NCBI GenBank assembly: GCA_030390025.1
Contig: JASTWF010000110.1
Location: 372,001-436,000, forward strand
Direction of reading: 5' to 3'
DNA length: 64,000 bases
From: Squalus acanthias
Taxonomy: Eukaryota
The translations under genes and the position numbers were made by a program. Positions 3,952 through 60,434 of this stretch are shown here, piece by piece. The notes under the pieces were generated by a model, which saw nothing but the letters and a program-made list of their open reading frames with translations, ran no database searches and was not told the origin of the DNA. The first letter of the stretch is position 1; each line of letters begins with the position of its first letter.

Positions 3952-5268
3952 ATATAGGATATTGTCATATATCCCTTTTACCATCAAGTGGAGGTATTAT
4001 AGGATATTGTCATATATCCCTTTTACCATCAAGTGGAGGTATTATAGGATATTGTCATATATCCCTTTTACCATCAAGGGGAGGTATTATAGGATATTGT
4101 CAGATATCCCTTTTACCATCAAGTGGAGGTATTATACGATATTGTCATATATCCCTTTTACCATCAAGTGGAGGTATTATACGATATTGTCATATATCCC
4201 TTTTACCGGATGTGGAGGTATTATACGATATTGTCATATATCCCTTTTCCCTGATGTGGAGGTATTATAGGATATTGTCATATATCCCTTTTACCTGATG
4301 TGGAGGTATTATAGGATATTGTCATATATCCCTTTTACCATCAAGTGGAGGTATTACAGGATATTGTCATATATCCCTTTTACCTGATGTGGAGGTATTA
4401 TAGGATATTGTCATATATCCCTTTTACCATCAAGTGGAGGTATTATAGGATATTGTCATATATCCCTTTTACCATCAAGTGGAGGTATTATAGGATATTG
4501 TCATATATCCCTTTTACCATCAAGTGGAGGTATTATAGGATATTGTCATATATCCCTTTTATCTGATGTGGAGGTATTATAGGATATTGTCATATATCCC
4601 TTTTACCTGATGTGGAGATATTATAGGATCTTGTCATATATCCCTTTTACCATCAAGTGGAGGTATTATAGGATATTGTCATATATCCCTTTTACCTGAT
4701 GTGGAGGTATTATAGGATATTGTCATATATCCCTTTTACCATCAAGTGGAGGTATTATAGGATATTGTCATATATCCCTTTTACCTGATGTGGAGATATT
4801 ATAGGATCTTGTCATATATCCCTTTTACCATCAAGTGGAGGTATTATAGGATATTGTCATATATCCCTTTTACCATCAAGTGGAGGTATTATAGGATATT
4901 GTCATATATCCCTTTTACCTGATGTGGAGATATTATAGGATCTTGTCATATATCCCTTTTACCATCAAGTGGAGGTATTATAGGATATTGTCATATATCC
5001 CTTTTACCTGATGTGGAGGTATTATAGGATTTTGTCATATATCCCTTTTACCATCAAGTGGAGGTTTTATAGGATATTGTCATATATCCCTTTTTCCTGA
5101 TGTGGAGGTATTATAGGATATTGTCATATATCCCTTTTACCATCAAGTGAAGCTTTTATAGGATATTTTCATATATCCCTTTTACCATCAAGTGAAGGTA
5201 TTATAGGATATTGTCATATATCCCTTTTACCTGATGTGGAGGTATTATAGGATATTGTCATATATCCT
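3952..5268. repeat. 45/44-bp minisatellite, about 29-30 copies
   Basis: Unit tataggatattgtcatatatcccttttacc(atcaagt or tgatgt)ggaggtat. Confidence 0.97.
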
Positions 5269-5342
5269 TTCCAAGTTCGAGGACTAGATCACTCTGAAAC
5301 ATCTGGTTAACACTCTTTATTAAATCAAGTCAATGATATAAC

Positions 5343-6719: not shown

Positions 6720-7400
6720 CCGCACCATCACTAAGAGCGCCTATTACTACCTCCGGAACATCGCTCGACTCTGTCCCTGCCACAGCTCATCTGCTGCTGA
6801 AACCCTCATCCATGCCCTTATTACCTCTAGACTTGACTATTCCTGGTCAGCCTCCCACGTTCTACCCTCTGTAAATTTGAGGTCATCCAAAATTCGGCTG
6901 CCCGTGACCTAACTCGCACCAAGACCCGTTCACCCATCACCCCTGTGCTCGCTGACCTACTTTGGCTCCCAGTTAAGGACGCCTCAATTTTAAAATTCTC
7001 ATCCTTGTATTCAAATCCCTCCATGGCCTCGCCCCTCCCTATCTCTGTAATCTCCTTCAGCCCCACAATCCCTCAAGATATCTGCGCTGCTCTAATTCTG
7101 CCCTCTTGAGGATCCCTGATTATAATCGCTCAACCTTTGGTGGCCGTGCCTTCTGTTGTCTAGGCCCAAAGCTCTGGAATTCCCTGCCTAAACCTCTCCA
7201 CCTCTCTACCTCTCTTTCCTCCTTTAAGACACTCCTTAAAACCTACCTCTTTGACCAAGCATTTGGTCACCTGCCCTAATTTATCCTTGTGTGGATCGGT
7301 GTCAAATTTTTTGTCTTTTCACACTCCTGTGAAGCCCCATGGGACGTTTTACTACATTGAAGGTGCTATATAAATACAAGTTGTTGTTGCTGTTGTTGTT
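6720..7400 (+). mobile_element. LINE2 3' fragment
   Basis: gctgaaaccctcatccatgcc...ctagacttgactatt...ctctggaattccctgcct...ctatataaatacaagttgttgttg tail. Confidence 0.85.
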
Positions 7401-7700: not shown

Positions 7701-7934
7701 CATTGGCGGCCGTGCCTTTAGCTGTCTCGGCCCCAGGCTCTGGAATTCCCTGCCTAAACCTCTCCGCCTCTCAAACTCTCTTTCCTCCTTTAAGACGCTC
7801 CTTAAAACCTACCTCTTTGATCAAGCATTTGGTCACCTGTCCTAATATCTCCTTATGTGGCTCGTAGCCAAATTTTGTTTTATGACACTCCTGTAAAGTG
7901 CCTTTGGACACTGTATAAATACAAGTTGTTGTTG
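7700..7934 (+). mobile_element. LINE2 3' end fragment
   Basis: Second copy of the 7135-7390 sequence ending tataaatacaagttgttgttg. Confidence 0.8.
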
Positions 7935-8379
7935 ATATACTAGAAGTACGGGAAATAAAATAACTGATGAAAATAAAATTGTTGGTGAATTTAAAGAGAT
8001 TTATTTCCCTGCACATAGTGAGCTCCAGGCCGCCCCGATACCATGGTAACGGGACATCGAGCAGGACTGAATGAAATGGAGGAAGAGTTTCTCATGTGAT
8101 GCAGAGCTTGGGTTTGCAGCGAAAGTGCCCAGAACAAAGTGGCAAAATTATTTCAAAATAAAGATTATCAGATTGTTAGCAAAGAAATGTAAAAATCTCA
8201 CATTTAAAATAATAAATTTAGCCTTTAGGTTAATATTGTTTCTTCAAAAACAGCTCGAGTGGGTGTGTTTGAGGTATCAGTAAAATAACTGGCAGAGTGT
8301 GGAGACCGACAGAGGCCTGGGCCCGGGTCCATCTCCATCTCTCGCCATCTCCATCTCTCTCTATCTCCAGCCTCAGCCA

Positions 8380-21578: not shown

Positions 21579-22064
21579 ATTCCTTCCTCTGTTTGCTCCA
21601 CAGATGCCGACTGACTGCTGAGCATTTCCTGCTCTTGTTTCAGATTTCCAGCATTTTGCGTTATTTTGCTTGTTGTTTATTTCCCAATCATTTATTACCC
21701 TAACAGTGCGCGGCATTCTGTGCAAAAGTGTTTTTCACCCTGTTCTTTCCCCTTGTGACTGGGCACTTGTCCTGGTGACCTGCCCCAGGGAGCCTCGGGG
21801 GCCACACATAGACTTAGAGCCATATTCCCATTGCTTTGTACCGGTCTCAAGCTGCTGAAACAAACAAATCTTGTTCTTCTGGTTTACACTGAAGGCAGGG
21901 GTCTCTCCAAACCTCCAGGCCCACAATATTTACAGGAAAATTGGCAAATGGCAGGAGGTTGCATGGGCTTTGAGGATGGGATTAGCAGAAGGTTCCAATT
22001 GTAGGCTGGACTGAATTCCCGGAGAGCCGGGATGTAGGATGGACGGGATTACCAGGGGGTCCCG

Positions 22065-22360
22065 GGGTCTGGGATGGACGGGATTGACTGGCTGTACAGG
22101 GGGTCCCAGGGTCGGGGATTGACTGGGTGTACAGGGGGTCCCGGGGGATTGACTGGGTGTACAGGGGGTCCCGGGGGATTGACTGGGTGTACAGGGGGTC
22201 CTGGGGGATTGACTGGGTGTACAGGGGGTCCTGGGGGATTGACTGGGTGTACAGGGGGTCCTGGGGGATTGACTGGGTGTACAGGGGGTCCTGGGTGATT
22301 GACTGGGTGTACAGGGGGTCCTGGGGTCGGGGATTGACTGGGTATACAGGGGGTCCCGGG
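22065..22360. repeat. 30-bp G-rich minisatellite, about 9 copies
   Basis: Unit gggattgactgggtgtacagggggtcctgg. Confidence 0.95.
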
Positions 22361-22704
22361 ATCTTGGACAGACTGTTGTACAGGGTGTCCCAGGCTGTAG
22401 AATGAGCTGCATGTACAGGGGGCTGTAGAATTGACCGGATATCCCCGCTCCACAACAATGCAATAAAATGACATCAATACCCAAACAAGTCTCTTTTTTA
22501 AAAACATAGCGAAATAGTGCACAACACTCCAGATTAAATTATATTACCTTTTTAAGAAATTTTACTGCTGACTCTGTGTTGTTTACGTATGTAGCAAGCT
22601 TCTTTCAACATCATTCTGAGTCTCACATAGGTGAGGTGTGAGAGCCGGGAGGGAGCAGAGGGGAAGATATCCTCGTGGAGTCGGCCCTGCTGTCTTATTA
22701 GAAT

Positions 22705-24934: not shown

Positions 24935-25093
24935 TCAGCTCAGGCGCTTCCCCCTCTCCCCCTTCTGTACAAAAGCATAGACGCTCTCTAGAGGGCCCTC
25001 TCTCGTGTCGGGTGCTGGTGCTGGTGGGTTTCTGGACTCAGGCCACTGTAGAAGGGATTACATGAGCTCACCATTCGTTGTCGACTCCCGACC
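24935..25093 (-). CDS. Exon 5: terminal cytoplasmic exon with two ITIM-like positions, interrupted by in-frame TAA at 25060-25058
   Basis: Acceptor ccttttctgttctgtgcag, phase 0; reads GRESTTNGELM*SLLQWPESRNPPAPAPDTREGPLESVYAFVQKGERGKRLS* (final TGA 24937-24935). Confidence 0.75.
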
Positions 25094-26982: not shown

Positions 26983-27062
26983 CTCAGCCAAGTCCTGCCT
27001 CGTTCCTTCCATTGGCGGAACAGACGCTTCCATGGCAACTGAATCGTGTCGTGGGCGACAAC
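26983..27062 (-). CDS. Exon 4: first cytoplasmic exon
   Basis: Acceptor gttttaattcag, 80 nt, phase 1-0, donor GAG/gtaaga; reads GCRPRHDSVAMEASVPPMEGTRQDLAE in frame with exon 3. Confidence 0.75.
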
Positions 27063-27639
27063 CTGAATTAAAACATGCAGACAGGAAGAGAATTTCTTGC
27101 ATCACGTGTGAATGATGAAACTTCAAAGCTATTTAAAGCGTGATAAAGACACTACTGTATAAGGAGACGGCAGAAACAGACAACAGCACGACCCCGCTAA
27201 TACTTTTTAATTGGTCACCGCAAGCTCCAATTTTGTATTCGGTAATTGGACTTATGTTAATTTCTTTCAGCTAAGGAGAGTATCACCTGAGAAACTGACC
27301 AGTTATCAATTACAGACACCAAAGCCCCAATCCCTGGCTTTACATGGACAGTTAAAAGTTAAAAATTTGTCCGATATAAAGAAGTGAGACAAAGTCCAGC
27401 CAGACTGCAAGAACTTCCATGAGGTCCAATAAAGAATTTGGTGCAAACTCTGTTAAACATTTTCTAAGATCCGTTGTGCATACATTGTTTGAAGACATAC
27501 CACAATTGGAGAGAATTCAGATATCCCATAATTATAGCTTAATGTTCCCTGCCAACTATCTTTGCTGGTGTAATTCTTCTGCAGCAATTTTTCAGTAGCA
27601 GTGCCACACACTTTGTAAATGTGCAAACCCATCGTGCCT

Positions 27640-27845
27640 AGTAGTGTAAATCAATAGTTCACATCCCGTAGTTGTGCAAATCAATGGTTCATGTCCAGTC
27701 GTGGTGTACATCAACAGTTTGCACCCAGTAGTGGTGCAAATAAATAGTTCATATCTAGTCATCGTGCAAATCAATGGTTTGTGTGGAGTAGTCATGTAAT
27801 CCAATGGTTCATGTCCAGTAGTCATGTAAATCAATGGTTCATGTC
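27640..27845. repeat. Degenerate 30-bp tandem repeat, about 7 copies
   Basis: Consensus gtagtcatgtaaatcaatggttcatgtcca. Confidence 0.8.
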
Positions 27846-28134
27846 TATTCTGTTTTGTTTAGTTTAGAATGGTTAAGGTCTCCCTTCAACTAACAGATAG
27901 AGGACTATCTTACCAATGCCCTAAGTGTTCATTCCCCTAATATCCAAAACCGTAATTTCAAGGCTTCTCTCTCATTTCTTTAAGACTCACTCCCCCTACC
28001 TACAAGCCCAAGATACAACGCATCGGTCTATCATTGAATGCCAGCTCACACTGAAGTGTATTAGCTGGTGGCCACTGGTGAAATGAGGCAGATCACTAAC
28101 TGCACCGGTAGTTAAACCACCACAGCATCTGTTC

Positions 28135-28440
28135 AACAACAACAACTTGTATTCATATAGCGTCTTTAATGCAGTAAAACATCCCCAGGGGCTTCACAGG
28201 AGTGTTATAAAACAAAATTTGACACCGAGTCACATAAGGAGATATTAGGACAGATGACCAAAAGCTTGGTCAAAGAGGTGGGTTTTAAGGAGCGCCTGCA
28301 AGGAGGAGAGAGAGGTAGAGAGGCGGAGAGGTTTAGGGAGGGAATTCCAGAGTTTAGGGCCTAGGCAGCTGAAGGCACGGCCACCAATGGTTGAGCGATT
28401 AAAATCGGGGATGCTCAAGAGGGCAGAATTCGAGGAGCGT
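28135..28440 (-). mobile_element. LINE2 3' end
   Basis: caacaacaacaacttgtattcatatagcg... antisense of the L2 tail at 7090-7390. Confidence 0.85.
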
Positions 28441-29013
28441 GCAGTTGGTCCATGCGTTCATCGTTCAACATCAGTCCACTCTCAGACCATCATCCCGACC
28501 CTTCCTCCTTTCCTTATAGGTGTCGAGCTGGAAAGGGAGCCCTCTATCCCACCTAGTGACACTCAGGGAGCCAATGGGGAGAAGGGCATCCCGAGGAGCC
28601 GCATATCAGATGATCATCTGAGGTTGGAGTGAAGGACAGGAGGAGGATGGGGGCAGTGCAGGAGCTGAATGTCCCTCACTCCCCACCCCACGGGCTGAGT
28701 AAATGCTCCAGAATGGCAGTCGGCTCATTCGGTGACCTGACCTGTGACTTTAACTGTGGGCGATAGTGTAAAATCGGCAGTACTGAATTAGCTGCCCATT
28801 ATATGCCCTGACGATCTTCCTTTCCATTGAACTCAACAGAAGTGAAAATCGAACGGGAGGCCAATTTGATATCGTCCATTATAGACCATCACCCAAAGTT
28901 AAAATTAGCCCCATTTGACTAACTGGAGCCACGATTGGCACTTTCCGCCCCTCCGCAGTTTGCCAATAATCATTCACTGTGGTAAGTTCTACTCACCAAG
29001 AGCAGCCACTTAC

Positions 29014-29205
29014 CTCTGTGTGTTTTGGTCGCCAATAGGCACAAGCAGATGGCGAGGACAATGAGGAGGCACACAGCAGCAGGGACACCAATAGACATGG
29101 CAGCTGAAGGCACGGCCACCAATGGTTGAGCGATTAAAATCGGGGAGGGTGTTGTGTTGTTCTGTGTTGACCCTGAAACACTTGGGGCAGTAGGATTCTC
29201 GCTGT
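29014..29205 (-). CDS. Exon 3: Ser/Thr/Pro stalk plus transmembrane helix
   Basis: Acceptor gttttgttacag, 192 nt, phase 1-1, donor G/gtaagt. Reads DSENPTAPSVSGSTQNNTTPSPILIAQPLVAVPSAAMSIGVPAAVCLLIVLAICLCLLATKTHR: hydrophobic span followed by basic residues. Confidence 0.85.
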
Positions 29206-29413
29206 CTGTAACAAAACACTTGGATTATTCTAATAACTGGAGCCAAAACTGGAAATGACTAACAGTAGGCCTATTGGCAATGACATCATTTATAGTTAGA
29301 CCCTATTAACGTTGGAAAATTGGAGTTCATTCGGTTAAGTAAACACGGTGGGATGAAATTGGACATGGGCAGTGCGCAAAATGGGCAGTATCTCATCAGT
29401 AGCCCGTTATATC

Positions 29414-32400
29414 GTGCTGAGGACATCGTGGATAGCATGTTTAGGGAGTTGGTCACACCGCAGATAAAGGCTGCACAGGCAGGAAGGGAATGGGTGACCA
29501 CCAGGCAGAGTAGTAGGCACAGGCAGGTAGTGCAGGGGTCCCCTGTGGCCATCCCCCTCTCAAACAGATATACCGCTTTGGATATTGTTGGGGGAGATGG
29601 CTTATCGGGGGAAGGCAGTAGTAGCCAACTTCCTGGCACCGTGGGTGGTACTGCTGCACAGTATGGGAGGAAAAAGTGTGGGAGAGCTACAGTGATAGGG
29701 GATTCTATTGTAAGGAGAATAGATAGGCATTTCTGCAGCTGCAAACGAGACTCCAGGATGGTATGTTGCCTCCCTGGTGCAAGGGTCAAGGATGTCTTGG
29801 AGTGGCTGCAGGGCATTCTGGAGCTGTCGTGGTGCATATAGGTACCAACGATATAGGTAAAAAATGGGATGAGGTCCTAAAAGCTGAATATAGGGAGTTA
29901 GGTGGTAAATTAAAAGTAGGATCTCAAAGGTAGTAATCTCAGGATTGCTACCAGTGCCACATGCTAGTCAGAGTAGAAATAGAAGGATATTTCAGATGAA
30001 TACGTGGTGAGAGGAATGGTGCAAGGGGGAGGGATTCAAATTCCTGGGACATTGGAACAGGTTCTGGGGGAGGTGGGACCAGTACAAACTGGACGGTTTG
30101 CACCTGGGCAGGACCGGGACCAATGTCCTCGGGGGAGTGTTTGCTAGTGCTGTTGGGGAGGATTTAAACTAAAATGGCAGGGGGTTGGGAACCTGTGCAG
30201 GGAAACAGAGGAAAGGGAAGCAAGGATAGAAGCAAAAGACAGGAAGGAGAAAAGCAAAAGTGGAAGGCAGAGAAATTAAGGATGTAAATCAAACAGGGCC
30301 ACAGTAAATAATAATTCTAAAAAGACTAAGAGTGTTAAAAAAACAAGCCTGAAGGCTTTGTCTCTTAATGCAAGGAACATTTGTAATAAGGTGGATGAAT
30401 TAGCTGCGCAAATAGATGTAAACGGATATGATATAATTGGGATTACGGAGACATGGCTCCAGGGTGACCAAGGCTGGGAATTCAACATCCAGGGGTATTC
30501 AATATTCAGGAAGGACAGACAAAAAGGAAAAGGAGGTGGGGTAGCATTGCTGGTTAAAGAGGAGATTAACACAATAGTAAGGAAGGATATTAGCTCTGAT
30601 GATGTGGAATCTGTATGGGTAGAGCTGAGAAATACCAAGGGGCAGAAAATGTTAGTGGTAGTTATATACAGACCGCCAAACAGTAATGCTGAAGTTGGGG
30701 ATGGCATTAAACGGGCAATTAGAGACGCGTGCAATAAGGGCACAGCAGTTATCATGGGTGACTTTAATCTACATATAGGTTGGGCTAACCAAATTAGTAA
30801 CAATACTGTGGAGGAGGAATTCCTTGAGTGTATACGGGATAGTTTCCTGGACCAATATTTCAGGGAACCAACTAGAGATCAGGCCATCTTAGACTGGGTA
30901 TTATGTAATGAGAAAGGATTGATTAGCAATCTTGTTGTGCGAGTGTTTGCTAGTGCTGTTGGGGAGGGTTTAAACTAAAATGGCAGGGGGTTGGGAACCT
31001 GTGCAGGGAAAAAGAGGAAAGGGAAGCAAGGATAGAAGCAAAAGACAGGAAGGAGAAAAGCAAAAGTGGAAGGCAGAGAAATCAAGGATGTAAATCAAAC
31101 AGGGCCACAGTAAATAATAATTCTAAAAAGACTAAGGGGTAAAAATTCACTTGGTTGCGCCTCCCGTTAGCGCCTTAAGAGGGCGCTAATGGGGCGCAAA
31201 GCCGCTAACGCCCGGGCGCAGCGATGTTTGCGCCGCTCGAGAACTTAACTTGAGATTGTGCGGCGGCGCTAAAACTTACCGCTGCGACCACCTGCGCGCG
31301 CAGATTGTGACGTCATTCCATGGTGCAACGCCCTTGTGGCGCCCCGTAGCGGAAATTGAGTGGCGCCCCCTGCCTTACCGCCTGGCGCATCCAACGACCA
31401 GAAGACTGGAACGCTATCAATCGCTGTGGGGCTGGGGGGGGCGCTATTTAAAGGGGGCCTCTTCCTGTCTTTTATTGTTGGTGGCATTTTTGAACTACGC
31501 ATTCTGAGAGAGAGAGGGAGAGACTTCTGGAGAGATTCAACGTTGTGTGAAGGAGTTTTGGGTACTGAGCAGCACTTTGCAGGTTCATTTTGATTTGCCA
31601 TTCCTTGTATCGATTTAGCAGAGACTGTGGGAGCTGCACTCTGAGCTCTTTGCCTGGTACTCTCCATTGTTCTTTCCAGCACATTTGATGTGCAAGTCTC
31701 TCCAGGCCGAGATTCAAGGCAGCAATGAACAGGATGTGGATGGAAAGCAAGATTAACCATCCCCTTTAAGAACTGGCCCGTGCCATTGTGTGTGTGTTCC
31801 ATTGCTGACTGACATTACATGAGCTTCGCCAGCGCTCCGAGTTAGCGCCTCACTGCTCAGCCTTTGCGCCTTAAGAGAGGTGTGCAGCGCCTGCTTTAGC
31901 GCTCCACTCACCTCCCGGGGCGGTAAAAGTGAAGTTTCCTGTCAGTGCCGATAATTAGCGCCAGGCGCTAATATTTGCGTCCGGACGATATTTGCGCCCC
32001 AAATGGGGCGCGACCTAATTTCTACCCCTTTGTCTCTTAATGCAAGGAGCATTTGTAATAAGGTGGATGAATTAGCTGTGCAAATAGATGTAAACGGATA
32101 TGATATAATTGGGAATACGGAGACATGGCTCCAGGGTGACCAAGGCTGGGAATTCAACATCCAGGGGTATTCAATATTCAGGAAGGACAGACAAAAAGGA
32201 AAAGGAGGTGGGGTAGCATTGCTGGTTAAAGAGGAGATTAACACAATAGTAAGGAAGGATATTAGCTCTGATGATGTGGAATCTGTATGGGTAGAGCTCA
32301 GAAATACCAAGGGGCAGAAAACATTAGTGGGAGTTATATACAGACCCCCAAACAGTAATGCTGAAGTTGGGGATGGCATTAAATGGGAAATTAGAGACGC

Positions 32401-34900
32401 GTGCAATAAGGGCACAGCAGTTATCATGGGTGACTTTAATCTACATATAGGTTGGGCTAACCAAATTAGTAACAATACTGTGGAGGAGGAATTCCTAGAG
32501 TGTATACGGGATGGTTTCCTGGACCAATATGTCGAGGAACCAACTAGAGATCAGGCCATCTTAGACTGCGTATTATGTAATGACAAAGGATTAATTAGCA
32601 ATCTTGTTGTGCGAGGCCCCTTGGGGAGGAGCGATCATAATATGATAGAATTCTTCATTAAGATGGAGAGTGAAGTAGTTGACTCAGGGACTAGGGTCCT
32701 GAATTTAATTTAAGGAAACTACGATAGTATGAGGCGCGAGTTGGCTAGATTGGATTGGGGAACGTTTCTTAAAGGGTTGACGGTGGACAGCCAATGGCAA
32801 ACATTTAAAGATCGCATTGATGAACTGCAGAACTTGTTCATCCCTGTCTGGCATAAAAATAAAACAAAAAAGGTGGCGCAACCGTGGCTAACAAGGGAAA
32901 TTAGGGATAGCATAAGATCCAAGGAGAGGACATATAAATTGGCCAGAAAAAGCAGCAAACCTGAGGATTGGGAGCAGCTTAGGATTCAGCAAAGGAGGAG
33001 AAAGGGATTAATTAAGAGGGGGAAAATAGAGGATGAGAGTAAGCTTGCAGGGAACATAAAAACTGACTGTAAAACCTTCTATAGATATGTGAAGAGAAAA
33101 AGATTGGTGAAGTCAAGCATAGGTCCCTTGCAGTCAGAATCAGGGGAATTTATAATGGGGAACAAAGAAATGGAGGACCAATTAAATACATACTTTGGTT
33201 CTGTCTTCACAAAGGAGGACACAAATAACCTCCCAGAGATGTCGGGGAACATAGGGTCTAATGAGAGGGAGGAACTGAATGCAATCAGTATTTGTAGGGA
33301 AATGGTGTTAGGGAAATTGACGGGATTGAAGGCCGATAAATGCCCAGGGCCTGATAATCTACATCCTAGGGTACTTAAGGAAGTGGCCCTAGAAATAGTA
33401 GATGCATTACTGGTCATCTTCCAAAATTCTATAGACTCTGGCACAGTTCCTATGGATTGGAGGGTAGCTAATGTAACCCCACTATTTAAAAAAGGTGGTA
33501 GAGAGAAAACGGGGAATTATAGACCGACATCGGTAGTGGGGAAAATGCTAGAATCCATTATAAAAGATGTAATAACAGAGCACTTGGAAAACAGTGACAG
33601 GATCGAACAAAGTCGACATGGATTTACAAAAGGTAAATCGTGCTTGACTGATCTACTGGAATTTTTTGAGGATGTAACTGGTAGAATAGATAAGGGAGAA
33701 CCAGTGGATGTGGTGTATTTGGACTTTCAGAAGGCTTTTGATAAGGTTCCGCATAAGAGATTAGCATGCAAAGTTAAAGCACATGGGATTGGGGGTAAGA
33801 TACTGACTTGGATAGAGAACTGGTTGGCAGGCAGGAAGCAAAGTGTTGGAATAAACGGGTCTTTTTCCGAGTGGCAGGCAGTGACTAGTGGGGTACCACA
33901 GGGATTGGTGCTAGGACCCCAGCTATTCACAATATATATTAATGATCTGGACGAGGGTACTAGATGTAATATCTCCAAGTTTGCAGACGACACAAAGCTG
34001 GGTGGGCGTGTGTGCTGGGAGGAGGATGCAGAGAAACTCCAGTATGATTTGGACAGGTTGGGTGATTGGGCAGATGCATGGCAGATGCAGTATAATGTGG
34101 ATAAATGCGAGGTTATCCACTTTGGTGGCAAAAACAGGAAGGCAGATTATTATCTGAACGGCAATAGATTGGGAGAAGGGGAAGTGCAACGAGCCTGGGT
34201 GTCCTTGTGCACCAGTCGCTGAAGGTAAGCATGCAGGTGCAGCAGGCGGTTAAGAAGGCAAATGGTATGTTGGCCTTCATAGCGAGAGGATTCGAGTACA
34301 GGAGCAAGGATGTCTTGCTGCAGTTGTACAAGGTCTTGGTGAGACCACACCTTGAGTATTGTGTGCAGTTTTGGTCGCCTTATCTGAGGAAGGATGTTCT
34401 TGCCATGGAGGGAGTGCAGCGAAGATTCACCAGACTGATACCTGGGATGGCATGAATGACGTATGAGGAGAGATTGGGTCGATTGGGCTTATATTCGCTG
34501 GAGTTTAGAAGAATGAGAGGGGATCTCATTGAAACTTATAAAATTCTAACAGGACTAGACAGACTAGATGCAGGAAGGATGTTCCCGATGGCGGGGGAGT
34601 CCAGAACCAGGGGTCACAGTCTAAGGATAAGGGGTAAGCCATTTAGGACTGAGATGAGGAGGAATTTCTTCACCCAGAGAGTGGTGAACCTGTGGAATTC
34701 TCTACCACAGAAGGCAGTTGAGGCCAATTCATTAAATATATTCAAGAAGGAGTTTGATATATTTCTTAAGGCTAAAGGGATCAAGGGATATGGGGAGAAA
34801 GCAGGAACAGGGTACTGAATTTGGATGATCAGCCATGATCTCATTAAATGGCAGAGCAGGCTCGAGGGGCTGAATGGCCTACTCCTGCTCCTATCTTCTG
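29414..34900 (+). mobile_element. Near full-length CR1 (ORF1 SGNH esterase, ORF2 APE endonuclease + RT) with internal duplication and MITE
   Basis: ORF1 VIGDSIVR...VCCLPGARVKD; endonuclease LNARS, GITETWL, MGDFN, SDH; RT 32729-34222; same young family as 1-2406 and 62056-64000. Confidence 0.95.
31136..32028. mobile_element. GC-rich Harbinger-type MITE (family B relative)
   Basis: TIRs ggggtaaaaatt / aatttctacccc; left end is reverse-complement similar to 9590-9663; about 27 bp of host CR1 is missing at the site and no TSD is visible. Confidence 0.8.
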
Positions 34901-34934
34901 TTATATGCCCGATACTCAGTGCTGTTGACTTTAA

Positions 34935-36239: not shown

Positions 36240-36629
36240 CTGTCCCGGAATAGACTGTTAACGTCACATTGCCTTTACTGGCTGTGTCCCCAGCACTGCA
36301 AACAGTTATCACATACACGCCGCTGTCACTGGGCTCCAGATCCCGCAGCAACAAGGATCCATTCTCTGGGTAGATGTGGACTCTCCCTCTGTGGGAAGGA
36401 GCGACCCGCTGGTAATCTGAACAGGTATAACCGGGTCTGTCAGGGTCTGGAGAGCAGTTTGATCGGGTCAGTATCACTAATGGAGTGTCTCCGGGGAATA
36501 AAGTCCACTCTATCCTTAAAGTGGAGTAGGGAGTGGGTGTGGAGTAGGAGCCAAGGAGAAGGACAGACTGGTTCACGGTCCCGTTCACTTCTCTCTGACC
36601 GACGCTCACAGTAACATTGCTTCCAGAGG
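36240..36629 (-). CDS. Exon 2: Ig V-set domain, HEPACAM/CEACAM-N/CD2-like (no B-F disulfide)
   Basis: Acceptor ttttattttgttgcag, 390 nt, phase 1-1, donor G/gtagga. Translation has V-frame hallmarks VNGTVNQSVLL, IEW, RGRVHIYPENGSLLLRDLEPSDSGVYVITV, NVTLTV; several N-glycosylation sequons. Confidence 0.92.
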
Positions 36630-44703: not shown

Positions 44704-44776
44704 CGGAGAGGGAGATAAAATAACTGATGAGAGGGAAAATGTTGGCGAATTGAAACAGATTTATTTCCCTGCCCAT
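44704..44776 (-). CDS. Exon 1 (signal peptide) of a single-V-domain Ig-superfamily receptor
   Basis: ATG at 44776; 73 nt = MGREINLFQFANIFPLISYFISLS + 1 nt, followed by perfect donor gtaagt (44703-44698). Phase 1 joins in frame to the V exon (...ISLS-A-SGSNVT...). Confidence 0.7.
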
Positions 44777-49013: not shown

Positions 49014-49112
49014 ACTTGCCAGGGAGGGATGTAAATAACTGCTGAAAGGGGAAATGTTGGTGAATTTAAAGGGGAGGTTTATTTCTCTAATGTAGCTCAG
49101 TAACTCAGACAT
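49014..49112 (-). pseudogene. Third, degenerate copy of the leader exon
   Basis: Aligns with 44698-44780 (REINLPFKFTNISPFSSYL versus REINLFQFANIFPLISYF); donor changed to gcaagt, phase shifted, homologous ATG lost. Confidence 0.6.
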
Positions 49113-53837: not shown

Positions 53838-53845
53838 ACCAGAAA

Positions 53846-54252
53846 CCAGAACCTTAACCAGTATCCCGGCCAGAACCTTAACCAGTATCCCAGCCAAAAC
53901 CTTAACCAGTATCCCAGCCAGAACCTTAACCAGTATCCCAGCCAGAACCTTAACCAGTATCCCAGCCAGAACCTTAGACCAGTATCCCTGCCAGAACCTT
54001 AACCAGTATCCCAGCCACAACCTTAACCAATATCCCAGCCAGAACCTTAACCAGTATCCCAGCCAGAACCTTAACCAGTATCCCAGCCACAACCTTAACC
54101 AATATCCCAGCCAGAACCTTAACCAGTATCCCAGCCAGAACCTTAACCAGTATCCCGGCCAGAACCTTAACCAGTATCCCGGCCAGAACCTTAACCAGTA
54201 TCCCGGCCAGAACCTTAACCAGTATCCCGACCAGAACCTTAACCAGTATTCC
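53846..54252. repeat. 24-bp minisatellite, about 17 copies
   Basis: Unit ccagaaccttaaccagtatcccag. Confidence 0.96.
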
Positions 54253-54254
54253 AG

Positions 54255-58854: not shown

Positions 58855-60210
58855 AGAGCGTTTTACATAATAAAACATTCACAGGAACATTATCGGACAA
58901 AATTTGACACCCAGCCGCATAAGGAGATATTAGGACAGGTGATAAAGAGGTAGGTTTTAAGGAGTGTCTTAAAGGAGGAGAGAGAGGTAGAGAGGCAGAG
59001 TGGTTTAGGGAGGGAATTCCAGAGCTTTGGGCCAAGGCAGCTGAAGGCACAGCCAACACTGGCTTAGCGATTATAATCGGGGATGCTCAAGAGGCCAGAA
59101 TTGGATGAGCGCAGATATCTCGGAGGGTTGTAGGGCTGAAGGAGATTACAGAGATAGGGAGGGGCGAGGCCATGGAGGGATTTGAAAACAAGGATGAGAA
59201 TTTTAAAATTGAGTCATTGCTTAACCGGGAGCCAATGTAGATCAGCGAGCACAGGGGTGATGGGTGAACGGGACTTGGTGCGAGTTAGGACACGGGCAGC
59301 TGAGTTTTGGACGACCTCAAGTTTACGAGCATAGAATGTGGGAGGCCAGCCAGGAGTGCATTGAAATAGTCAAGTCCAGAGATAACAAAGAACATAAGAA
59401 CATAAGAAATAGGAGCAGGAGTAGGCTATTCAGCCTTTCGAGCCTGCTCTGCCATTCAATGAGATCATGGCTGATCTTCTGCCTCAACTCCATTCACCGG
59501 CCCTATCACCATATCCCTTGATGCCCTTACTAGTCAGAAATCTATCGACTTCTGTTTTGAATATACCCAATGACTGAGCCTCCACAGTCCTATGGGGTAG
59601 AGAATTCCAAAGGTTCACCACCCTCTGTGTGAAGAAATTTCTTCTCATCTCAGTCTTGAATGGCCTACCCTTTATCCTGAGGCTGTGGCCCCTGGTTCTA
59701 GATGCCCCAGCTAAGGGAAACATTCTCCCAGCATCCACCCTATCAAGCCCTGTAATAATTTTGTATGCTTCAATGAGATCCCCTCTCATTCTTCTGAATT
59801 CAAGAGAATACAGGCCTAGTTTACTCAATCTCTTCTCATACGACAGTCCCGCCATCCCAGGAATCAATCTCGTGAACCTTCGTTGCACTCCCTCTATGGC
59901 AAGTATATCCTTCCTTAGGTAAGGAGACCAAAATTGTACACAGTACTCCAGGCATGGAGGAGGGCTTCAGCAGCAGATGAACTGAGGCAGGGTTGGAGTT
60001 GGGTGTTGCTATGGAGGTGGAAATAGGCGGTCTTAGTGATGGCGCGGATATGTGGTCAGAAGCTCATTTCGGGGTCAAATATGACCCCAAGGTTGGAAAC
60101 AGTCTGGTTCAGCCTCAGACAGTTGCCAGGGAGAGGGATGGAATCAGTGGCTAGGGAACAGAGTTTGTGGCGGGGACCAAAGACAATGACTTCGGCCTTC
60201 CCCATATTTC
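58855..60210 (-). mobile_element. LINE2 (tail at 55288-55311) interrupted by a CR1 (59388-59955, minus)
   Basis: Antisense of 6720-7390; sequence resumes gcatggag.agggcttcagcagcagatga after the CR1. Confidence 0.82.
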
Positions 60211-60434
60211 GTTGAAGGCACGGCCGCCAATGGTGGAGTGATTAAAATCGAGAAATGGTCATTGCAGGGAACTGGGTTGTTAACATTCATTGTTACTGTT
60301 TATCCGTCTTGCAGTTTCCTGTTCTCGAGAGCTAGATTAACATCCCTGGCCCTTACTTCAGTGGTTAAGCGGACAGGAAGCCATATAAGAAGAAAATAGG
60401 CTTGATTGTTGGCAGGCCTTGACTAATTTATTCA

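Follow-up and report, generated by a model that had tools for sequence, protein, structure and literature searches.

A LINE-Derived Patch in the Stalk Exon of a Shark Paired-Type Receptor Gene, Probably Copied From the Neighboring Intron by a Microhomology-Primed Double Template Switch

The Host Gene and Its Predicted Protein

The window analyzed here, a stretch of 64,000 nucleotides from Squalus acanthias (C141:372001–436000 of assembly G000, contig JASTWF010000110.1), contains on its minus strand a five-exon gene, gene A, in which a short patch of LINE-derived sequence lies within the third exon and is read on the same strand. Exon 1 (44704..44776, minus strand) encodes the leader and has an intact ATG, exon 2 (36240..36629, minus strand) encodes an IgV domain (Pfam V-set, E 2.5e-8), exon 3 (29014..29205, minus strand) encodes the stalk and the transmembrane (TM) segment, and exon 4 (26983..27062, minus strand) and exon 5 (24935..25093, minus strand) are cytoplasmic; all four GT-AG introns are intact. 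An inverted duplicate, gene B, is situated 284 kb from gene A, is 94–97% identical to it and carries the sole other copy of the TM exon that was found. Exon 3 comprises 192 bp in gene A versus 168 bp in gene B, with phase 1/1 and intact AG/GT sites, and exon 4 is the same in both genes. In exon 5, gene B carries the tyrosine motifs LTYSML and SVYAFV, both of which resemble the ITIM consensus, and the orthologues also carry two such motifs. In gene A, a premature TAA (25058..25060, minus strand) takes the place of the Tyr codon of the first ITIM-like motif (TAC in gene B); it precedes both tyrosine motifs, and the predicted protein ends in GRESTTNGELM. A 2-bp deletion follows at approximately 24950, close to where gene A would normally end, and is seemingly not shared with contigs of two independent samples. 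The TM segment of gene A is devoid of charged residues. As the TAA falls on the first ITIM-like tyrosine, gene A is likely a pseudogene or a non-signaling decoy, and the stop together with the uncharged TM segment leads to the prediction that its product does not signal. Since both tyrosine motifs are removed, any function of the TE-derived coding sequence in gene A is hypothetical. Intron 2 of gene A additionally contains a 5.5-kb LINE-derived insertion in antisense orientation (29407–34906), which is absent from gene B, is flanked by a 6-bp duplication (ATATAA) and lies ~200 bp upstream of the acceptor site of exon 3.

The Receptor Cluster and Its Surroundings

Judged by its domains and neighbors, gene A is predicted to code for a receptor with one IgV domain and belongs to a cluster of paired receptors. 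Between genes A and B lie nine further V exons (V exons are 80–90% identical) and nine TM exons of the activating type, eight of which encode an Arg and have a short tail, while the remaining one encodes a Cys. The idea that the nine V exons act as variable cassettes joined to shared TM exons, in a protocadherin-like manner, was rejected because the cassettes have activating-type TM exons of their own. These activating-type members occupy C141:496808–541201 (L023–L032 and L041–L045), outside the window and in both orientations between the inverted inhibitory-type genes, and they are laid out as leader, IgV and, about 200 bp downstream, a TM exon with Arg and the tail RRRYRAK followed by the stop. 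Members with V exons at 501843, 507193, 511240, 515067, and 531965 of C141 are apparently intact, stops or frameshifts disrupt those at 496808, 521756, and 540426, the V exon at 526129 has no TM exon nearby, and an orphan TM exon with the Arg-to-Cys change is found at C141:538647. A search with the V exon of gene A returned 56 longer proteins, of which the top 21 belong to sharks and rays (57–75% identity) and most others to birds, nearly all of them unnamed, and a search of PDB sequences gave merely weak generic IgV matches. On sequence similarity, the cluster is apparently an uncharacterized shark/ray paired-receptor family with bird relatives; the literature on shark paired receptors and on skate modular-domain receptors, in the part covered here, does not name the host family.

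The two genes belong to an inverted segmental duplication, in which the window from about 15000 to 63000 matches C141:655429–752356 with 94–99% identity in blocks and the repeat insertions differ between the arms. Orphan copies of the leader exon are present on the minus strand at 7924–8016, there lacking a splice donor, and at approximately 49035–49112, and a V exon was found for neither of them. More distant IgV exons (39–40% identity) lie at C141:357026–357139 on the plus strand and at C26:26299577 and C26:28465711 (L033 and L034). Minisatellites occur in the window at 27639–27878 (30-bp units), 22038–22400 (~18-bp units), 3953–5270 (~45-bp units), and 53843–54254 (~24-bp units), and in the arm of gene B (C141:699000–742000) the ~18-bp array seems to have grown to a length of tens of kb.

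The Patch and Its Donor

The first-pass annotation of this DNA had reported that positions 29099–29146 match 28364–28411 at 48 of 48 bases, and this match proved exact, on the same strand and in direct orientation at a distance of 735 bp. The matching 48-mer (28364..28411, minus strand) is part of a 5'-truncated LINE 3' end of about 300 bp in intron 3 (28133..28439, minus strand), which consists of the ORF2 C-terminus, the 3' UTR and a (GTT)n tail, stands in sense to the gene and is present in both gene A and gene B. In a longer copy (L007), one of four sequences scanned, an RVT_1 match lies upstream of the same tail (E 8e-6; 26.1 bits, under the cut-off of 29.6), and on this sequence evidence the donor is a LINE 3' end; its clade may be L2, a label adopted from the earlier annotation and judged from the ORF2 C-terminus. 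The frame of the donor itself reads ...IPDFNRSTIGGRAFSC...LWNSLP..., and the frame used by the patch differs from it, being bounded in the donor by a TGA one codon upstream and a TAG directly downstream.

An exact search of assembly G000 gave 60 copies of the 48-mer in 3.71 Gb and none of a control pattern, which supplies the genome-wide count that had been proposed as a check, and the family is estimated at a rough 136,000 copies genome-wide by extrapolation from a 464-kb region. Around the window, these 464 kb contain 20 copies that have at most 10 mismatches, namely the insert, the neighboring donor (no mismatch), the donor of gene B (one mismatch, at a CpG site) and 17 others that differ at 2–10 positions. 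The insert is thus identical to its own donor at 48/48 bases and to that of gene B at 47/48, and it has four states in common with the neighboring donor that are present in just 6–8 of the 17 other regional copies. That other copies in the window differ had also been noted beforehand and holds for 7113–7160 and 59036–59083 (6/48 differences each), while 60213–60250 is a partial copy (92% over 38 bp) and the copy near 7705 overlaps by 24 bp. The computed probability that at least one of the 58 other exact copies would lie within 1 kb by chance is ~3e-5. These copy counts, the regional mismatches and the low chance expectation indicate that the 48-mer is more than mere family consensus, and with only 60 exact copies in 3.7 Gb and 17 divergent copies in the region, the neighboring intron-3 LINE is the likely template of the patch.

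The Empty Site and the Anatomy of the Scar

Gene B reveals what the site looks like without the patch: in its exon, the same TCC and GCC enclose 15 bases of other sequence. When gene B is taken as the pre-event state, which the reading of the scar assumes, 42 bp of LINE-derived sequence (29102..29143, minus strand, delimited by alignment to gene B) replaced 15 bp of the ancestral exon, a net gain of 27 bp, with a 3-bp microhomology at each end: TCC at the 5' junction (29144..29146, minus strand) and GCC at the 3' junction (29099..29101, minus strand; followed by TAG in the donor, in the frame of the patch), both of them common to the ancestral exon and to the two ends of the donor 48-mer. Under a uniform-base model, microhomology of at least 3 bp at both ends is expected by chance with a probability of ~0.003. 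Neither a TSD nor a 3' tail of the element accompanies the patch when its junctions are compared with the empty site, as had been stated before, in contrast to the 5.5-kb insertion of intron 2 with its 6-bp duplication. The description as an insertion of 48 bp, or 16 amino acids, has to be revised, since 15 bp were lost and the outer 3 bp on each side pre-existed. In the same way, the alignment to the paralogue that had been suggested yields unrelated sequence of 15 bp at the site and no plain 48-bp gap.

At the protein level, KSRDE is exchanged for PILIAQPLVAVPSA, by which 14 amino acids are new, five residues are lost and the net gain is nine. On the minus strand the full 48-mer reads SPILIAQPLVAVPSAA in the context ...NNTTP SPILIAQPLVAVPSAA MSIGV..., followed by the TM helix, in agreement with the earlier remark that the fragment begins on a codon boundary just before this helix. 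Anatomy, polarity and frame of the scar are fixed by these alignments and by the homologues described below.

Polarity and Age

For 12 of the 21 shark and ray homologues, picked for having a matching TM exon, the stalk was aligned, and in 12/12 it is no longer than that of gene B; in Heterodontus the P-to-V spacing is the same as in gene B. Because all 12 have the short stalk, the patch is, on this comparison of sequences, derived and later than the split of A and B. With 0/48 differences between patch and donor, the divergence is under ~6% (95% bound).

Just 5' of the patch, genes A and B differ at 12/146 sites, compared with 92/3,679 (Fisher p 5e-4). The motif ENPTAPS of gene A in this stretch matches the activating paralogues in the genome (ENPTPS) and the orthologues at positions where gene B differs, so gene A has the ancestral state at three codons near the patch when compared with outgroups. 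A repair-linked burst of mutations 5' of the patch was therefore rejected as a gene A-specific event, and a 14-mer search with this stretch gave no other template among the matches listed. More broadly, divergence of A and B amounts to ~8% in the window at 29147–29420, the interval that separates the patch from the 5.5-kb insertion, versus 2.5% downstream, and this segment is possibly one shielded from gene conversion.

Independent Sequence Data

Matches were obtained in 18 sequencing runs, among which five DNA runs, all from one organism and covering two samples and two studies, hold 0.61–0.68 of the words, while gene B alone would yield 0.35; runs of other organisms have word shares of 0.04–0.10, which probably reflect repeats. 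Contigs from four runs were compared with the window in this repeat-rich stretch, where high-copy repeats make such contigs break or collapse, and among those listed none bridges the junctions of the patch. Two contigs from the two samples (X3 record 24 and X5 record 31) span 28410–29256 and are each 30 bp shorter than this part of the window, a shortfall in keeping with an empty site combined with a deletion of 6 bp at 29039. These contigs represent, at 29030–29094, a third version of exon 3 that is not in the assembly, with the 6-bp deletion and several substitutions in TM codons. In intron 3, a contig of a further run (X1 record 8) has five differences from gene A where gene B has 19, and is in this respect closer to gene A than gene B is. 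Exon 5 occurs in two versions in X1, one with the nine substitutions of gene B and one with six, of which five are listed and none at 25058. As a change at 25058 would rank among the best supported and none is listed, the TAA is probably retained in both samples, and the stop looks real and shared across samples. The patch may be polymorphic. These contigs hint that the stop came first and the patch later, but this order is tentative, as they lack linkage to one another, might be mosaics from a collapsed assembly and have an exon 3 that is partly B-like, so that conversion from gene B could have erased a patch. No RNA run was among the matches listed, and in one RNA run the unique exon sequence has no cover, which bears neither way on expression.

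Origin of the Patch

We consider a real local double template switch, to which we assign a probability of roughly 80% from the sequence evidence, to be the source of the patch, and the best reading is a microhomology-primed event of the polymerase-theta or MMBIR type, a known class of mutation. A break or a stalled fork would have arisen in exon 3 in the germ line, and a 3' end in TCC would have paired with the TCC of the intronic LINE, either on the resected far end or on the sister chromatid. A polymerase would then have copied 42 nt plus the GCC, that is 45 nt of synthesis, from the LINE, before the strand came free and annealed again to the GCC that precedes the TM codons, with loss of 15 nt. 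The predicted product is a receptor with a longer, uncharged and hydrophobic juxtamembrane segment. That the donor is a LINE is probably incidental. Between end joining by polymerase theta and replication switching of the MMBIR/FoSTeS type, our judgment is about evenly divided; a patch of 42 nt with 52% GC is atypical for polymerase theta, and the scar is compatible with a fork origin. The earlier proposal had been templating during break repair or local conversion rather than retrotransposition. Its local, repair-type template stands, homology-based conversion falls because donor and exon have no more than 3 bp in common at either edge, and the dismissal of retrotransposition is borne out by the 15-bp target loss, the two 3-bp microhomologies and the missing TSD.

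The most serious objection concerns the reality of the allele. A chimera of assembly or library, or a somatic event, would leave no germline patch, and it would suit the lack of a junction-bridging contig among those listed, the exon-spanning contigs of both samples that fit the empty site and the word share, which is not near 1. However, these contigs equally lack the whole 5' half of the exon in its A-type form, which nonetheless matches outgroups at three codons, by which the gene A haplotype looks real, contigs fail at high-copy repeats in any case, and two clean in-frame microhomology junctions would be an unlikely consensus error; we regard such an artifact as improbable. Still less credence is given to RNA-templated repair, in which a reverse-transcribing polymerase would have copied the pre-mRNA of the gene with its intronic LINE. 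It accounts equally well for the local match, and donor and patch have one transcription unit and one sense in common, but germline transcription of a predicted immune receptor would be required, and DNA templates account for the scar without it.

Were the neighbor match a coincidence, a distant LINE copy or LINE mRNA could have been the source, as in class 2 TSIPs or endonuclease-independent insertion. The 58 other exact copies provide candidates, and the absence of a TSD, the microdeletion and the microhomology are class 2 features in the part of the TSIP literature considered (PMC5110952), but with the ~3e-5 expectation and the four states common to insert and neighbor this explanation is close to refuted. 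Hardly any weight remains for the reverse polarity, with gene A ancestral and a LINE piece lost from gene B: gene A does hold the ancestral state at the three nearby codons, but the short stalks in 12/12 homologues, the Heterodontus spacing and the identity of the patch with a LINE copy, which marks it as young (<~6% divergence), speak against it. Equally negligible are classical retrotransposition, of the TPRT or class 1 TSIP kind, and homology-driven gene conversion, which share with the preferred reading that the patch is LINE-derived and which the empty site rules out, given an internal fragment without 3' tail or TSD, a target deletion and flanking identity of just 3 bp.

Predicted Consequences for the Receptor

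The patch had been thought simply to lengthen the stalk, but it also strips four charged residues and extends the uncharged run through the TM segment from 25 to 57 amino acids. Predicted hydropathy in the best window of 19 residues stays the same (3.0 vs. 3.1), and the number of windows >1.6 rises from 13 to 20. A phase-1 acceptor was also said to come with the fragment, and an in-frame internal AG does exist in the patch (29104..29105, minus strand); as an acceptor it would be weak (56% pyrimidine versus 62% at the canonical site, by a crude measure), and both paralogues already have another internal in-frame AG at +33. Among simulated microhomology double switches on the locus of gene B, 9,023 of 74,164 (12%) are in frame and stop-free, which mildly favors selection for an open frame; this weak hint is offset by the fact that in-frame events are those that are noticed.

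From the TAA and the uncharged TM segment, we lean toward the view that the patch was tolerated in a relaxed or dying duplicate rather than selected. It is possible, though doubtful, that gene A is instead expressed as a non-signaling decoy whose anchoring or shedding is altered by the patch, a role compatible with any mechanism of origin. By the exon-junction-complex (EJC) rule, a stop in the last exon is predicted to escape nonsense-mediated decay. Such a decoy would be in line with this position of the stop, with the intact ATG, introns, V domain and TM segment, with the TAA apparently kept in contigs of two samples, with the in-frame patch against an expectation of 12% and with the ITIM relic cut by a stop in KIR2DS2, as reported in the portion of the source considered (PMC3533184). 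On the other side, expression of gene A is hypothetical, the V exon differs from gene B by 15 nonsynonymous and 2 synonymous changes, not distinguishable from neutral (p 0.16), 4/9 neighboring family members are broken, and a 57-residue uncharged run may impair folding. The full scenario, in which gene A survives as a decoy receptor devoid of ITIMs within a still undescribed paired-receptor cluster of the shark and, on an allele that still segregates, exchanged its charged juxtamembrane segment for a hydrophobic peptide from an alternative frame of a LINE by repair copying from its own intron, with neither transposition nor exonization, is unlikely as a whole.

The patch is a fresh instance of a known mutation class, and because such mutations are familiar and gene A has lost its predicted signaling motifs, the biological consequence is probably small. 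Its value lies in an unusually clean scar, in which donor, empty site and both microhomologies are visible. If the gene A allele is expressed, it would exemplify a third route for repeat DNA into a reading frame, besides transposition and exonization, and the family concerned is of immune type and evolves fast. More attention may be due to the surrounding paired-receptor cluster than to the patch.

Comparison With Known Systems

In TE exonization, sequence of a transposable element ends up in a reading frame other than that of the element. The patch is similar in being read in a frame other than that of the LINE, but it was copied into an existing exon with intact splice sites, and neither a new exon nor the recruitment of splice sites was needed. 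A literature search with partial coverage found no coding TE fragments gained by templated insertion, which does not thereby show novelty, and a search on the template distance of microinsertions found nothing.

Among repair products, insertions templated from direct repeats and primed by 2–3 bp have been described (PMC7165422; PMC12426944). The TINS of polymerase theta resemble the patch as deletion–insertions that lack a TSD and carry short microhomology at either junction (PMC7165422; PMC12426944; PMC7368036), and their templates lie in flanking DNA in direct orientation (PMC7165422; PMC12426944). In the passages of these sources that were covered, however, tracts are AT-rich and in each round 'rarely more than 10 bp' (PMC7165422), insertions are 'generally <25 bp' (PMC12426944), and longer cases are said to occur, so that published events mostly below 10–25 nt contrast with a single tract of 42 nt, 52% GC and a template 735 bp away. 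Templated insertions of the MMBIR/FoSTeS type share the microhomology-primed switch and return, and there the size of the patch is ordinary, as ~100 germline MMB-TIs of at least 25 bp per human genome studied are reported in the section considered (PMC8421209); they differ in that no quasi-palindrome or larger rearrangement is seen with the patch and in that the patch keeps the reading frame of a coding exon. Class 2 TSIPs, as far as the covered part of the source extends (PMC5110952), are likewise heritable patches with microdeletion and microhomology, without TSD or poly(A), and include partial LINE donors, but their donors are distant and probably RNA-derived, while that of the patch is in the next intron.

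The host locus recalls the paired Ig-like receptor clusters KIR, LILR, and PILR, which, in the part of the review considered, likewise combine near-identical V domains with ITIM-like inhibitory-type members and activating-type members with a TM Arg and a short tail (PMC3533184). It differs from them as an uncharacterized shark/ray family with bird relatives, some of which are labeled HEPACAM-like, and by a gene A that is without both ITIMs and without a charged TM residue; in its ITIM cut by a stop, gene A recalls KIR2DS2 as described there (PMC3533184).
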